A DNA stretch of 10,082 bases from a virus. Lineage: Duplodnaviria; Heunggongvirae; Uroviricota; Caudoviricetes. The notes under the pieces were generated by a model that did not search any database, was not told where the DNA came from, and saw only the letters and a list, made by a program, of their open reading frames with translations. Below are positions 2,671 to 8,861 of this stretch, piece by piece. Location: positions 1 through 10,082 of the IMG/VR virus record IMGVR_UViG_2917855067_000003; one strand, written 5' to 3'. The stretch's first letter is position 1. Each line of letters begins with the position of its first letter. A program made the position numbers and the translations under genes.

Positions 2671-2894
2671 ACGTTACCCTCCCCGGTAAGCCACTGCTGA
2701 TTGCAGCGTTCGACCACGCCGTCGAGCTGGGCGGTCATGAGGTAAATCACGGAGGTGAGCTGTAACTGCTGCGTCGGGTCACGACGAACGGTGGCGCAGT
2801 CCTGCACCTGCATCAGGTTGCCGACGAGCTGGCCGACGTTGCGCATATGCTCCAGACATTCGAGGTCACGGGCGGTAATGGTGGTGTGTCTCAT
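2667..2894 (-). CDS. hypothetical protein (75 aa), P4-like leftward operon
   Basis: ORF with SD GGAGGTG upstream. ATGA overlaps at both ends indicate translational coupling. Function not recognised. Confidence 0.55.
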
Positions 2895-3085
2895 GCGCGC
2901 ACCTCCGCAACCGGCAGACGGCCAGCGAACGAGAGGACGTAATCGCGAATGAGGGAAAGGCGTGCGGCGTGCTCATCACCGGCAACGGTGCGGAGCATAC
3001 AAATACGGGGGGTACGGTCTGCGCGACGAACAGCGGCAAACACAAAGACAAACTGCGGGTGTGACGGGGTGAGGGTCGTAGCCAT
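2891..3085 (-). CDS. hypothetical small protein (64 aa), first gene after the putative leader terminator
   Basis: ATG at 3085 is preceded by a near-consensus SD (AGGAGG, about 9 nt spacing). The same frame stays open up to 3442, but that extension crosses a terminator hairpin and lacks an SD, so the short form is preferred. Confidence 0.5.
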
Positions 3086-3288
3086 AAGGGCAACCTCCTG
3101 TGAATAGCGGTTATTGCCACCACCGGAGTTCCTACGCTCATGGGTGGTGACCCGAACGGGGGTAGGAATACCGGCTTCACAGAATACCGGCCAGCCCGAA
3201 AGCTGCCCCGCCCGGACCACCATTATCTGACAGGGGCTATGGAATAAGCACCACAGCCCGAAAAATGGGTGTGCCTGAGCAACGACGT

Positions 3289-3311
3289 AAAAAAAGACGC
3301 ATGGCGCGTCT
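3289..3311 (-). terminator. rho-independent terminator for leftward transcription (P4 timm-like position)
   Basis: On the minus strand: stem AGACGC / GCGTCT (plus 3295-3300 and 3306-3311), 5-nt loop, followed by a run of 7 U (plus-strand A-run at 3289-3295). Confidence 0.5.
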
Positions 3312-3367
3312 GTTGTCGCCTGTGAATTACACGGGTTCCTACGCCCGGCTGCCGATTTTGCGGCAGC
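3289..3367 (-). ncRNA. candidate small structured RNA (position analogous to the P4 CI / C4-type immunity RNA)
   Basis: About 350 nt lacks a convincing coding region between alpA/vis and the next SD-bearing ORF. The minus-strand transcript would start with a 7-bp hairpin (plus 3348-3354 / 3361-3367), contain further imperfect stems, and end at the terminator. A possible -10 (TATAGT, plus 3374-3379) lies just upstream. No homology check was possible. Confidence 0.25.
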
Positions 3368-3438
3368 GGGAAAACTATACCTGGAAACGGCGAAAAGAAG
3401 CAAGCCAGAAAAAGGGGCTGTTTGCTGAACGGTCATCA

Positions 3439-3705
3439 TCATGCGTCATAGCCCCGGTTACGTTCGGCAATGCGATCCGCCATCCATGCAGTGATTTCAG
3501 ACTGCGCCCACGCCACATTTTTTCCGCCGAGGGAGATTTGTTTCGGGAAGGCTTCCCGGCTGATGAGGTCGTAAATGGTCGAGCGGGACAGGCCGCACAG
3601 ATGCATCACTTCGGGCAGACGGATAAAGCGCTCGTGAACGGTATCAGAAACCGGCATCAGCGGCGCGGCAGGGGCAGAAGACGGGGAAGAAAAAGCAGTG
3701 TGCAT
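3439..3705 (-). CDS. alpA: AlpA/Vis-family helix-turn-helix regulator (88 aa), matching the size of P4 Vis
   Basis: Translation contains the AlpA-family signature ([47 protein letters not shown]). SD GAGG lies upstream of the ATG at 3705. Confidence 0.85.
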
Positions 3706-3766
3706 CGGGCTACCTCACAAAGTCCATACAGTGCCGGTCGTGTCCGTCCGGCTTCGGGTAGCTCCT

Positions 3767-3795
3767 TATTATGTCTATATTTTTCCTCAGGTCAT
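3767..3795 (-). promoter_or_regulatory. candidate sigma70-type promoter for the leftward alpA/vis operon
   Basis: Minus strand reads ATGACC, a 16-17 nt spacer, then CATAAT/ATAATA, about 55-60 nt upstream of the alpA ATG. The -35 is weak. Confidence 0.25.
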
Positions 3796-3834
3796 GTGAG
3801 ATTTTCGGGGAAACAAACATTGACTTTTCGCTCT

Positions 3835-3871
3835 GGCAAACAAAGGCAAACGCTGGCAAACATATGCAAAT
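3835..3871. promoter_or_regulatory. four direct repeats at exact 10-bp phasing (GGCAAAC x3 and TGCAAAT); candidate regulator binding array
   Basis: GGCAAAC at 3835-3841, 3845-3851 and 3855-3861; TGCAAAT at 3865-3871. They sit in the divergent control region between alpA/vis and sid. Confidence 0.4.
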
Positions 3872-3971: not shown

Positions 3972-4105
3972 GGTGAACAGTGGTGAACAGACGGTGAACA
4001 GTCAGACCCTCAACTATTCACCCTTTAACTTACTGTATTAATTATCTTTTTATTTAAGGTGAACAGTGGTGAATAGTTATAAGTAAAAAAATAAACGGTG
4101 AGTAA
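3972..4105. repeat. iteron array GGTGAACA(G), the reverse complement of the P4 type I iteron TGTTCACC; ori/crr-like alpha binding region
   Basis: GGTGAACAG at 3972-3980, 3982-3990, 3993-4001 and 4058-4066; GGTGAATAG at 4068-4076; inverted copy CTATTCACC at 4013-4021; degenerate GGTGAGTAA at 4097-4105. Spacing is 10-11 bp within clusters, and an AT-rich stretch (about 3890-3960) lies alongside. Confidence 0.7.
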
Positions 4106-4152
4106 GGTTTTCCTGCGACCTTTCTCTGGCCAGCCGGTTTTTAAGGTCTGTT

Positions 4153-4170
4153 TGTGCCAGCATTCTGACA
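4153..4170 (+). promoter_or_regulatory. Ogr/Delta box (TGT-N12-ACA) of a Psid-like late promoter
   Basis: TGT at 4153-4155 and ACA at 4168-4170 are separated by 12 nt. The dyad centre is about 80 nt upstream of the sid ATG, consistent with a -55 activator site and a short leader. A weak -10-like CAGAAT lies near 4205-4210. Confidence 0.45.
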
Positions 4171-4242
4171 ACGGCAATGAATCGTGTTGTTGTGCAGGAG
4201 GCGTCAGAATCATTTCAGGTTGAACACACGGAGAACCTGAAC

Positions 4243-4986
4243 ATGAAACCCGAACTCATTATCAAAGCCATGCAGACCGTTATCAGTAAACAGGATGAAG
4301 GCGCGGAACAACGCATTGCCGGTGCGCTGGCCGCACTTAACGAAGCAAAAGATGCACACACGGCCAGCATGGGTAAACTCAGCGACATTGAGGCTTCCAT
4401 TCAGCGTTGTGAGCAGGAACGACAGACCGCCCTCAGTGAAAGTGCACAGGCCGAACAGGACTGGCGCAGCCGCCTTCGAACTCTGCGCGGCAACCTCACT
4501 CCTGAACTGAAAGCTGAACACAGTAAACGTATCGCCAGCCGCGAACTGGCTGATGAGTTCACCGGTCTGATTACCGAGCTGGAGAAAGACAAAAGTCTCG
4601 CCATGCTTGGCGCATGCTCCTCCGGTACGGCTTATATCAGCGCCCATGAAAAAGCATTCACCACTTACGCCAACAGCGAATGGAAGAAGGTGCTGGCCGG
4701 TATCAGCCCCGCACTGTTACGTGCCTTCCTGTTGCGTATACGGTCGCTGGAAATGAGCGGAGAAACCTCATCGCGTGCGACCGCGACACGTGAGCTGGGT
4801 GATGCCCTGAATCTGCAGTCAGCCCTGTATCATTTTGATATGGAGCAGGAGCCGGTCCTGTCCGTAACGGGCATGAATCGCCCGGTCATAACCGGGGTTG
4901 ATATGGCGCTGTTAAGAAGCCCGGCCAGACGGATGAAGCTTGCCGCTGAACTGGCTGCAAAATCCCACGAACAGGCAGAGGGCTGA
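4243..4986 (+). CDS. sid: Sid-like capsid size determination (external scaffold) protein, 247 aa
   Basis: Assigned by position as first gene of the sid-delta-psu operon, by its charged, helix-rich composition, and by a length near P4 Sid (about 244 aa as I recall). Start at 4243 has SD GGAG 9 nt upstream; the ORF-track start at 4177 would lie inside the promoter. Confidence 0.6.
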   Translation: MKPELIIKAMQTVISKQDEGAEQRIAGALAALNEAKDAHTASMGKLSDIEASIQRCEQERQTALSESAQAEQDWRSRLRTLRGNLTPELKAEHSKRIASRELADEFTGLITELEKDKSLAMLGACSSGTAYISAHEKAFTTYANSEWKKVLAGISPALLRAFLLRIRSLEMSGETSSRATATRELGDALNLQSALYHFDMEQEPVLSVTGMNRPVITGVDMALLRSPARRMKLAAELAAKSHEQAEG

Positions 4987-4989
4987 ATT

Positions 4990-5229
4990 ATGTTTCACTG
5001 TCCGTTCTGCAAAAAGACCGCGCACGTCCGTACCAGCCGTTATCTGTCGGAAAACGTCAAACAGCGTTATCACCAGTGTACCAATATCGAATGTTCGGCC
5101 ACTTTCCGCACCATCGAGTCGGTTGACGGTGTGATACGTGCCGCACCGGAGAAACCTGACCCCACCCCGGTGACGCCGCTGCCGCCGCGTAAAGAACAGG
5201 GCTGCTACAGCTCGCCGTTCCGGCATTAA
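4990..5229 (+). CDS. delta: Ogr/Delta-family zinc-finger late-gene transcription activator (single-domain, 79 aa)
   Basis: Translation MFHCPFCKKTAHVRTSRY...YHQCTNIECSATF has the Ogr/Delta Cys4 arrangement (C4, C7, C30, C35). It starts 4 nt after the sid stop, with SD GAGGG upstream. Confidence 0.85.
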   Translation: MFHCPFCKKTAHVRTSRYLSENVKQRYHQCTNIECSATFRTIESVDGVIRAAPEKPDPTPVTPLPPRKEQGCYSSPFRH

Positions 5230-5244
5230 TCAGGAGAGAGACAC

Positions 5245-5811
5245 GTGACCACTATGACAATACAGCAGGCCTTTGAGGCCTGTCAGGCAAACAAAAACAC
5301 CTGGCTGACACGTAAAGCCGAACTGGCTGACCTTGAACTTGAATACCGTGAACAGCTCCTTGCTGGTGACGAACAAATCCCGCGCAAAATGCAGGATTTG
5401 CGCGACAATATCGACGTGAAAAAATGGGAGATTAATCAGGCCGCCGGTCGCTATATCCGCTCACATGAGGAGGTGCAGCACATCAGCATCCGCAACCGGC
5501 TCTATGACTTTATGCAGCAGCACGGCGCGGAGCTGGCCGCCACGCTGGCGCCTGAATTGATGGGGTATAATGAACAGCTTCCCGTAGTAAAACAGAGCGC
5601 CATGCAGCATTCGGTTGATTATCTGCGTGAAGCCCTGTCAGTGTGGCTGGCCGCAGGTGACAAAATTAATTATTCCGCGCAGGACAGCGACATTTTAACG
5701 GCCATCGGATTCAGGCCTGATGCGGCTTCGCGGGATGATAATCGAGAGAAATTCACCCCGGCACAGAACCTGATTTACACCCGCCGACGTGCAGAACTGG
5801 TCGCACGGTAG
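5245..5811 (+). CDS. psu: Psu (polarity suppression protein; Rho inhibitor / capsid decoration), 188 aa
   Basis: Translation (..IQQAFEACQANKNTWL.., ..NQAAGRYIRSHEEVQHISIRNRL.., ..KINYSAQDSDILTAIGFRPDA..) closely resembles P4 Psu as I recall it. A GTG start at 5245 sits 8 nt after SD GGAGAGAG; the alternative ATG at 5254 is too far from the SD. Confidence 0.9.
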   Translation: MTTMTIQQAFEACQANKNTWLTRKAELADLELEYREQLLAGDEQIPRKMQDLRDNIDVKKWEINQAAGRYIRSHEEVQHISIRNRLYDFMQQHGAELAATLAPELMGYNEQLPVVKQSAMQHSVDYLREALSVWLAAGDKINYSAQDSDILTAIGFRPDAASRDDNREKFTPAQNLIYTRRRAELVAR

Positions 5812-6269: not shown

Positions 6270-6950
6270 TTAAAAATGATTAATCAAGATTTGATTTTTT
6301 TTAATTGCTCGTCTACTCCAGTGCTCTGTGATGTTTTGAGTGAAGTCGGGACGAACTATTTTTGCTCTAAAGTCCACTGCTTCAAGAGATTCTACTCTCA
6401 AATATATTCCTTCTGATATTTCATCGCTGAATTTTGATTTTTTTATATAAGAAGATAACTTGTTTAGTTCAAAGAAACCTTCGTCAAGAAAAGGAACGCA
6501 ATGAAGGTTTGCATTTGATATTATTTCGTTTCTTTGAGGAAGTGGTAAAAATATTTTTCTTTTCTTATCGAATACATCAAATGCTAAAAAATAGTCAGGT
6601 AAGCGGGTGTAGTGAATAGAATGTTTCGCATAACACCATTCCCCAAATATAATGTATTGGTCTCGAATGTAGTCAAAAAGGTTGTCGCGGTTGTAATTTA
6701 ACCAGTCAGGAAGCATTTTCCATTGGCCATTAAAAGGTTGATGTAAAAAAGAACCCCTATTTTGAAGGAGTAAGTCTGCATTACCATTAAAGGAAATGCC
6801 TAGATTAGCTCCGTCAATTTTCTCTTCTATTATGGTTTTTTTAGTTGAAAGCAATAATCGTTCTTTATCTGAAATGACCTTGTCATCCCTGACGTTAGGA
6901 TGGTAAAAAATATGTGGAGTGGACGGGAATTTATATAGTTCATCTTCCAT
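6270..6950 (-). CDS. Rnl2-type RNA-ligase-like nucleotidyltransferase (standalone adenylyltransferase domain, about 226 aa)
   Basis: Translation carries ligase motifs in the right order and spacing: motif I EEKIDGAN (KxDG), motif III FGEW, motif IIIa FDVFD, motif IV EGIYLR, motif V RAKIVR. ATG at 6950 has SD AGGAAG 9 nt upstream; the ORF-track GTG at 6977 has no SD. It is AT-rich and overlaps the upstream gene by 11 nt. Confidence 0.7.
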   Translation of the reverse strand: MEDELYKFPSTPHIFYHPNVRDDKVISDKERLLLSTKKTIIEEKIDGANLGISFNGNADLLLQNRGSFLHQPFNGQWKMLPDWLNYNRDNLFDYIRDQYIIFGEWCYAKHSIHYTRLPDYFLAFDVFDKKRKIFLPLPQRNEIISNANLHCVPFLDEGFFELNKLSSYIKKSKFSDEISEGIYLRVESLEAVDFRAKIVRPDFTQNITEHWSRRAIKKNQILINHF

Positions 6951-7479
6951 TTGGAAACTTCCTATTATATGTATCACTTATGAGTTTTTCGTCAGCAAAA
7001 TGAACCGTTATGCCTACATCAGCAAGAGATTCTTTCCAGCCCCACCATTTACTATCAGTTGCTTGAAAAATAGGCGGTTTGTCTACGTGTGCGTATGACG
7101 TGGCTACAAATTTTCTATCCGATAAATCAAAGTTTGTCAGGCCTTCATGTACAGGGAACTCCTCATAGCTAGTTTCGGTTTTTGTAATTCTTACGATGTT
7201 TTTATCAGGGAATTTCCATTGGTTAGTGTAAATCCATTTCATAAATTTATCACCAACGCCAGGGGCTCCACTCATGCTTAAATTTGAGCGATACTCTTCA
7301 ACTATTTCTTGTGCTTCATCAATAACTAACCCACCATTTGCAATTGCCTTTTCTATTATTTCAACACACTCTAAAACACAGCTTAGAATATCATCTGGAA
7401 TGTTTTTTATATCTGTGTGCATATTAGCTGTAACAGCAACATTTGTATCAATTAAAAAAGCAGCAGGTAATTTATTCAT
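6940..7479 (-). CDS. PIN-like domain protein (putative nuclease), 179 aa
   Basis: N-terminal AAFLIDTNVAV resembles the first PIN strand with its conserved Asp; further acidic positions (DEAQE, ATDSKW, ISDTY) fit the PIN pattern. SD GAAGG upstream; start overlaps the ATPase stop (ATGA). The domain call is by eye. Confidence 0.6.
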   Translation of the reverse strand: MNKLPAAFLIDTNVAVTANMHTDIKNIPDDILSCVLECVEIIEKAIANGGLVIDEAQEIVEEYRSNLSMSGAPGVGDKFMKWIYTNQWKFPDKNIVRITKTETSYEEFPVHEGLTNFDLSDRKFVATSYAHVDKPPIFQATDSKWWGWKESLADVGITVHFADEKLISDTYNRKFPNGR

Positions 7480-8861
7480 TTAGATGTACCTTCTTTTTCT
7501 TTTATTCTTCTTTTTAACGCTGATTTTGCTTGCTCTGTAATGTCTGTTAATTCATCACCAAAGAAATTATCTGGCCAGTTGAGGATATTTCCAAATGTAT
7601 CGATTTGCAACGGTGTTAATTTTGGGGTTGAAGATGAAATGTCAGAGAAGTACGCGGAAACTTCCTCGGATTTTATTTTGTCTTCTGCTATTCTCCTTTG
7701 CAGTCTGCGAAGGAAATGCTCTGAGTGAGTTTCTATAATTAGCTGTATGCCTCTTGATTTTCCATTTTCTCGTGAACGGATAACATCGATCATAACATCA
7801 GCAAGCACTGATTGTGCTTTTGGGTGTAAATGAATTTCGGGTTGTTCCATCAAAATTATTGAGCCTGGTTGAGCGTAAAAGCATTGTACTAGAACTGGAA
7901 GAACCTGAGAAACCCCAAACCCAACATCTGGAAGGTCTACCCACTGTTTAGAGCCTTTAGTTTTAACTTTGACTTCATATTCTTGACGATGTTCTGAAAT
8001 TGCTTTTACAGAAAAACTATCAATTAAGTCCATTTGTTTTAATTTTTCAGCGATGATTTCTTCTAATGGTTTATTTTTCTTTTTATAATCAAGGCCGATT
8101 CTTCTTTCTTTTGATGAAAGAATGGCGGAAATTGCATTTTCACCTGCATAACCTACGCTTTCTGGTGAAATTCCAGTCCATGGATATAATCGTTCAGGCT
8201 TATTTCTCATTGGCCCTAAGTAACATACTGAACGGAATAGCTTTTCATGCATTAGATTGATGTCTTGCACAAAATCAGCATTTTGATGGTAAGCTACGAC
8301 TTCCTCAGGGAAACCATAAAATCTAACTACATCTTTTATCGCCCAAACCCTACCCTTCTGTCGAGTTAGAGTGAAATTGTTAGTTTTGATTTTATAATTT
8401 GACTTAGCGTCACGAACAAGTCCTATAGATACATCATCTTTTTCTTTCTGATAGAATGTATATGAGAATCCATTGACATATAAGCTATTATTCTCAGCAT
8501 TAAAAGATATCTCAGATTTAAAATGGCATATTTTCGATAAGGATATAATGCTGTCTAATGATGATTTAGAGTATAATTCATCTATTGACCAAGAGTACTC
8601 AAATGAGATGTTCTTGTTAACGTCTCTCATGTTAACCATGTCTTGAAATGAGCCCAATTGTACTGCTGAGTTTTTACCTCCTGGGTAGAATGGGGTTTTT
8701 CTATCAGATGATTCAACCGTTTGTTTAAGCATCATGAGAAGCTGGCCAATACTAGATTTACCAGAGCTATTTGTTCCAAAGAAAAGAGTGATAGGTGACA
8801 TTTTGATTTCACCTGTATCAGTCCAAACCTTAAAATTTTCTACTTTTAATGTTTTAAACAT
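7476..8861 (-). CDS. ABC-type ATPase (AAA_15/AAA_21, OLD/RecF-like), 461 aa
   Basis: Walker A GTNSSGKSS near the N-terminus, Walker B region ILMEQPEIHLHP and H-loop ETHSEHF near the C-terminus, with a long insertion between, as in defence-associated ABC ATPases. SD AAGGA upstream; ATG is only 3 nt after the int stop. Confidence 0.85.
   Translation of the reverse strand: MFKTLKVENFKVWTDTGEIKMSPITLFFGTNSSGKSSIGQLLMMLKQTVESSDRKTPFYPGGKNSAVQLGSFQDMVNMRDVNKNISFEYSWSIDELYSKSSLDSIISLSKICHFKSEISFNAENNSLYVNGFSYTFYQKEKDDVSIGLVRDAKSNYKIKTNNFTLTRQKGRVWAIKDVVRFYGFPEEVVAYHQNADFVQDINLMHEKLFRSVCYLGPMRNKPERLYPWTGISPESVGYAGENAISAILSSKERRIGLDYKKKNKPLEEIIAEKLKQMDLIDSFSVKAISEHRQEYEVKVKTKGSKQWVDLPDVGFGVSQVLPVLVQCFYAQPGSIILMEQPEIHLHPKAQSVLADVMIDVIRSRENGKSRGIQLIIETHSEHFLRRLQRRIAEDKIKSEEVSAYFSDISSSTPKLTPLQIDTFGNILNWPDNFFGDELTDITEQAKSALKRRIKEKEGTSK

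Follow-up and report, generated by a model that had tools for sequence, protein, structure and literature searches.

The DNA analysed here, referred to below as the window, is a stretch of 10,082 nucleotides and is an otherwise complete P4-type phage satellite. Over a region spanning the origin, sid, delta and psu, it is 75% identical at the DNA level to phage P4, and a 97% identical copy adjoining ssrA is found in E. coli HKUOPY1 (L003). The leftward genes code for an AlpA/Vis-like protein, an Ash-family protein, a DUF5375 protein and an alpha-type primase-helicase. Ori type-1 repeats (GGTGAACAG) are located at 3974-4070, and the P4 record places the same repeats just upstream of sid. Rightward, the late operon consists, in this order, of sid, a gene coding for a 79-aa Ogr_Delta zinc-finger protein (delta) and psu, directly 3' of the promoter region that is the subject of this work, and it is followed past psu by genes for an RNA-ligase-domain protein, a HEC-03A/HEC-03B pair and an integrase (Table 1). 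The cysteines of the delta product are found at C4/C7/C30/C35, and the protein shares 53% identity with P2 Ogr and 39-43% with each half of the 166-aa P4 delta. As regards the Sid protein, no Pfam family was matched.

Several other features of the satellite were recorded. A P4-type RNA immunity region is recognized by Rfam on the minus strand at 3140-3380, with a C4 antisense RNA (3140-3227), isrK (3290-3367) and a C4 a1/b1 target (3328-3380), and it overlaps a program-listed 183-aa Ash/Icd-like open reading frame at 2891-3442. Three 10-bp direct repeats resembling CTGGCAAAC are present at 3832-3861, where P4 has its 'ori type 2 repeats', although their sequence differs. The psu-integrase interval (6270-8861, minus strand) is a satellite defence hotspot, whose cargo in the near-identical E. 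coli copy is another pair, composed of a DUF4435 protein and an AAA ATPase, instead of the one found here.

Table 1. Features of the window and of the phages used for comparison. Positions relative to +1 refer to the predicted start in the window; n = 22 denotes the distinct sequences of the -10-anchored set.
Feature	Position	Strand	Position relative to +1	Remarks
Upstream flank			-85..-65	50% identity (n = 22)
Activator site I (predicted), TGTGCCAGCATTCTGACA, TGT-N12-ACA	4153..4170	+	-64..-47	Centre -55.5
Left arm TGT			-64..-62	Invariant (n = 22)
Next four columns, G.CA			-61..-58	3/4 invariant (n = 22)
Dyad interior			-57..-50	55% mean pairwise identity, zero invariant columns (n = 22)
Right arm ACA			-49..-47	Invariant (n = 22)
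Conserved non-coding block, GCAATGAATCG	4174..4184	+	-43..-33	Contains ATG 4177
TCG of this block	4182-4184	+	-35..-33	Invariant (n = 22)
GTTGT block	4189..4193	+	-28..-24	5/5 columns invariant (n = 22)
Degenerate counterpart of P4 site II, TGTGCAGGAGGCGTCAGA, TGT-N12-AGA	4191..4208	+	Centre -17.5	One mismatch
Spacer			-23..-13	58% identity (n = 22)
-10 hexamer, CAGAAT	4205..4210	+	-12..-7	CA(G/C)AAT in 22 distinct Enterobacteriaceae sequences, 5/6 columns invariant (n = 22); CAGAAT in 24 Erwiniaceae loci
Predicted transcription start, A	4217	+	+1	7 nt past the -10; 26 nt ahead of the sid ATG
Shine-Dalgarno, GGAG	4230..4233	+		9 nt ahead of the sid ATG; aGAg columns conserved
sid	4243..4986	+		247 aa, external capsid-size scaffold homologue; 26% identical to P4 Sid in the alignment
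delta	4990..5229	+		79 aa, one-domain Ogr/Delta zinc-finger activator; CX2CX22CX4C; PF04606, E=8.7e-21
psu	5245..5811	+		188 aa, polarity suppression / capsid decoration protein; PF07455, E=4.9e-88
RNA-ligase-domain protein	6270-6977	-		Cargo
HEC-03A match	6940-7479	-		E=2e-25
HEC-03B AAA-ATPase match	7476-8861	-		E=1.3e-124
P2 PO	Start 3127; activator site 3057-3087			Activator site shared with PP
P2 PP	Start 3016; activator site 3057-3087			Activator site shared with PO
P2 PV	Start 10308; activator site 10239-10266
P2 PF	Start 17626-17628; activator site 17555-17583
ENT90 20-mers	L139 10408-10427, 27051-27070, 4737-4756	-

Between the origin repeats and sid, the original prediction had recognized a TGT-N12-ACA dyad, and the 18-mer at 4153-4170 is indeed an exact match to this pattern. 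The bare motif specifies six bases only, and its occurrence is at chance level: two exact matches are found in the window against 2.04 expected from shuffles, and 57 against 42 expected when one mismatch is allowed. The other exact match, at 3314-3331, falls within the isrK / C4-target immunity RNA region and is probably fortuitous. Such counts are in favour of a reading in which the dyad upstream of sid would likewise be a chance match, sid being transcribed from elsewhere, for instance by read-through from the ori region. What is non-random in the dyad at 4153-4170 is its position and its conservation, and not the motif itself.

This conservation was evaluated on 54 loci from reference genomes, retrieved with a Sid alignment after a search for Sid homologues. 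In the Enterobacteriaceae loci, which span Enterobacter, Citrobacter, Kluyvera, Kosakonia, Phytobacter and other genera, and whose Sid proteins are 50-98% identical to that of the window, an exact TGT-N12-ACA starting 90-92 nt ahead of the sid ATG was found in every case (23/23). These loci, together with the window and P4, were then reduced to a set of 22 distinct sequences anchored on the -10 hexamer, with Sid identities of 26-98%. Among the 56 registers of this alignment, the six TGT/ACA columns are all invariant in a single one, precisely that at 4153-4170, which is also aligned to the P4 site. The invariance of the arms, at a constant spacing from both the -10 hexamer and the ATG, as compared with neighbouring columns that are only about 50% identical, points to selection acting on the arms; since the sequences share descent, no formal probability can be attached to this comparison. 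In the right arm, the window reads CTGACA, and the symmetry of its dyad is poorer than with the TGCCACA of most relatives. As for the loci found in IMG/VR with the P4 Sid, all were at least 96% identical to P4 and had kept both of the P4 sites described below, being thereby too alike to inform on constraint. The motif, its conservation and its placement with respect to the -10 hexamer and the ATG are direct observations, as are the genes present and the start of sid. Given this fixed register, and given that no alternative promoter was detected on the + strand, a chance origin of the dyad appears extremely improbable.

The second element of the original prediction was a -10 described as weak, together with an activator site placed at -55 from a start near 4215. 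The hexamer CAGAAT matches TATAAT at 4/6 positions, in agreement with this description, and the +1 that it would imply, A4217, is compatible with the predicted 'near 4215' and puts the centre of the dyad at -55.5. This start is deduced from the -10 hexamer and from homology. The distance from the dyad centre to the first base of the -10 is 43.5 nt, a value identical to that of P4. No acceptable -35 is present, the best candidate, TCGTGT at a 17-nt spacing, matching at 2/6 positions, and a consensus scan of the + strand between 3700 and 6100 detected no sigma-70-type promoter. A 4/6 -10 combined with a 2/6 -35 and the lack of a sigma-70 hit in this interval gives the region the appearance of an activator-dependent promoter. 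Between the dyad and the -10, two further blocks are conserved. The first has the consensus gcAatg.aTCG in the Enterobacteriaceae set, while GCAATGAA is kept in the same place in the Erwiniaceae set, where the block recurs as GCAATGAAATG. The second is GTTGT. Its last three bases, TGT, form the left half of site II in P4, the right half of which is missing wherever delta is a one-domain protein. Just 5' of the activator site, at about 4115-4144, the sequence GACCTYTTYCTGGCnAGCCGG(G)TTTT is kept in the Enterobacteriaceae satellites and in P4; this block could be part of the origin or an upstream promoter element.

The program-made list of open reading frames starts sid at ATG 4177. If 4177-4242 were coding, Sid would be a 269-aa protein, the dyad would be found immediately 5' of a start codon and the real promoter would have to be sought further upstream. 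The window and its closest relatives (L005-L008) share an open frame from 4177, and one database cluster, P0002 (Salmonella Infantis), carries an annotation of 269 aa. Against this reading, in-frame stops separate the counterpart of ATG 4177 from the sid ATG in 13 related satellites (L009-L013, L016, L019, L021-L024, L026, L027), and the same upstream frame is closed in P4 by a TAA (L001 2031-2033). Furthermore, the Sid homologues at 60-80% identity are mostly 247 aa long and begin with MKP(E/D) at the equivalent ATG, the RefSeq/PGAP annotation of the 97% identical E. coli locus uses the equivalent of 4243, and the GGAG found before 4243 has no Shine-Dalgarno counterpart before 4177. Finally, ATG 4177 sits in a block of DNA that is kept even in sequences where its translation is impossible. 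The 269-aa version of Sid is thus highly improbable, and the choice of 4243 over 4177 made in the original prediction holds. On the alignment evidence, ATG 4177 is not a start codon: it would lie upstream of the predicted +1, within the conserved promoter block, and ORF callers choose it because it falls in that block. The annotation of sid can be fixed accordingly, with a start at 4243 and a product of 247 aa.

A promoter transcribing sid from the same genomic place, between the ori type-1 repeats and the gene, is known in P4 as Psid. Between 3960 and 4300, the window displays 83% mean column identity with P4. The 18-mer of the window aligns without any gap over P4 TGTGTCAGGGCTGGCACA (L001 1968-1985), CAGAAT lies over CACAAT, and the sid ATG over the P4 sid ATG. 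In both cases, the first base of the dyad is 52 nt upstream of the -10 hexamer and 90 nt upstream of the ATG, and the two share the CA(G/C)AAT hexamer, the GCAATG...TCG...GTTGT blocks and the operon located downstream. By this homology, the promoter of the window would be the orthologue of Psid, but not the two-site variant of P4 discussed further below.

In P2, TGT-N12-ACA is the late-promoter consensus, and CX2CX22CX4C, which is also present in the delta of the window, is the Ogr motif (PMC3931495). For comparison, the starts and activator sites of the P2 late promoters were taken from the annotation of the P2 RefSeq record and aligned by start. The PO 18-mer, TGTGTCAGTGATAAGCCA, and its reverse complement for PP both occupy -64..-47, with a centre at -55.5, which is the register of the window dyad given a +1 at A4217, whereas for PV and PF the centre of the site is at about -57.5. 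In the same line, the left arm TGTG(T/C)CA matches PO, and the P2 late promoters are likewise devoid of a -35. Two differences can nevertheless be pointed out. All four P2 late promoters depart from an exact TGT-N12-ACA, each of them having one imperfect arm (TGT-N12-CCA or TTG-N12-ACA), and the consensus is therefore a loose one, while the site of the window follows it exactly. Besides, a single site serves the two divergent promoters PO and PP in P2, as opposed to a single operon in the window. The gapless homology to P4, the register shared with PO and PP, the lack of a -35 and the presence of sid, delta and psu downstream all concur with the P2/P4-type late promoter initially proposed.

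Another protein might nonetheless bind the dyad, for example a host factor of the CRP type or a protein involved in replication. TGTGCCA, the left arm, is similar to half of a CRP site, and the rep_origin annotation of the P4 record runs through the equivalent region. The CRP consensus, TGTGA-N6-TCACA, amounts to TGT-N10-ACA. The dyad of the window, with its N12 spacing and its right arm CTGACA, does not conform to a class I CRP site. With regard to replication, the repeats bound by the alpha protein (GGTGAACAG, 3974-4070) differ in sequence from the dyad and lie upstream of it. Since the geometry of the dyad fits that of the annotated P2 activator sites, recognition by such another protein seems very improbable, and an activator of the Ogr/Delta family is retained as the favoured ligand.

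The main difference between the window and P4 concerns the number of sites. P4 has a second exact TGT-N12-ACA, TGTCCGGTGTACGTCACA (L001 2006-2023), which has its centre at -17.5 and overlaps the -10. The geometry of the two exact P4 sites agrees with that of the delta footprints on Psid, which we take to lie at about -55 and -18. Such a second exact site over the -10 is absent from the window, where a degenerate counterpart is found, and every non-P4 relative has AGA in place of the right arm; the TGT-N12-AGA of these relatives results from their -10 being CAGAAT and not CACAAT. In parallel, P4 delta is a 166-aa protein with two domains, as opposed to the 79-aa, one-domain protein of the window. 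A one-domain delta was found right after sid in all of the other related loci examined (47/47), two domains being found in P4 alone. An exact second site would thus go together with a two-domain delta, an association drawn from a single lineage that does not amount to a test. In satellites of the phiR73 type (retronphage phiR73), delta consists of one Ogr-like domain, about 80 aa long, the phiR73 protein being described as half as large as that of P4, and the one-domain delta of the window may be of this type. The satellite family does not in general possess the second delta site that has been studied in P4.

The leftward late promoter of P4, PLL, also has a counterpart in the window, on the minus strand at 3760-3845, with a -10 CATAAT at 3773-3768 that is aligned to P4 CAAAAT. 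Whereas PLL of P4 carries TGTTCAGGCTGTCTTACA at the -55 register (L001 1608-1625), no TGT-N12-ACA was found at this register in the window counterpart, even when one mismatch was allowed; the only one-mismatch matches there are centred at about -49.5 and -72.5.

A different situation is encountered in the satellites of Erwinia, Pantoea and Mixta (L028-L052), where no TGT-N12-ACA is present upstream of sid (at about 2380-2415 in each locus). Instead, TGT-N14-[GA]C[AG], more precisely TGTyTG-N8-CAGGCr, is observed in 23/24 Erwiniaceae loci, with a centre at -57.5 and the same CAGAAT -10, this N14 pattern having been chosen post hoc and being of low information genome-wide. The same type of 20-mer is found at the expected distance upstream of O, FI and V in the Erwinia P2-like phage ENT90 (L139). 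An alternative description of the Erwiniaceae sites as TGT-N10-ACA, with a CRP-like spacing and a centre at -59.5, was dropped, as one locus (L048) loses this motif while keeping TGT-N14-GCA, and as the ENT90 late promoters fit N14. The delta of the Erwiniaceae clade also differs in its finger region (HAKSSRYMSEQVKERY versus HVRTSRYLSENVKQRY). These observations suggest a co-variation of site spacing in satellites and helpers. It could be speculated, with a good deal of doubt, that N12 and N14 represent a helper-matching code, that the combination of one site and a one-domain delta, which is the common one, is probably ancestral, and that the two-site, two-domain arrangement of P4 is the exception. 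The N12 versus N14 spacing in the Erwiniaceae is the sole part of this analysis that might repay more work.

Taken as a whole, the region 4153-4217 is very probably the late promoter of a P4-like satellite, orthologous to P4 Psid and activated by Ogr/Delta, the exact position of +1, the binding of the activator and the activation itself being proposed by homology. According to this model, the promoter alone would be a poor sigma-70 promoter, with its CAGAAT -10 and no usable -35, until the dyad, centred about 55.5 bp 5' of the start, is occupied by an Ogr/Delta-type zinc-finger activator, which recruits the RNA polymerase. This activator would be supplied either by a P2-type helper, infecting or induced, in the form of Ogr, or by the satellite itself in the form of delta. 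The resulting transcript, starting near A4217, would code for Sid, Delta and Psu and, delta being the second gene of the operon, the latter would therefore reinforce its own expression.

The promoter described here is the orthologue of a well-studied one, found in an uncharacterised satellite, and the current view of P2/P4 late gene control is unchanged by these findings. What the comparison across 46 related satellite loci reveals is which positions of this promoter are under constraint. For the satellite itself, the arrangement found upstream of sid would mean that it is wired for the classical response to a P2-type helper.
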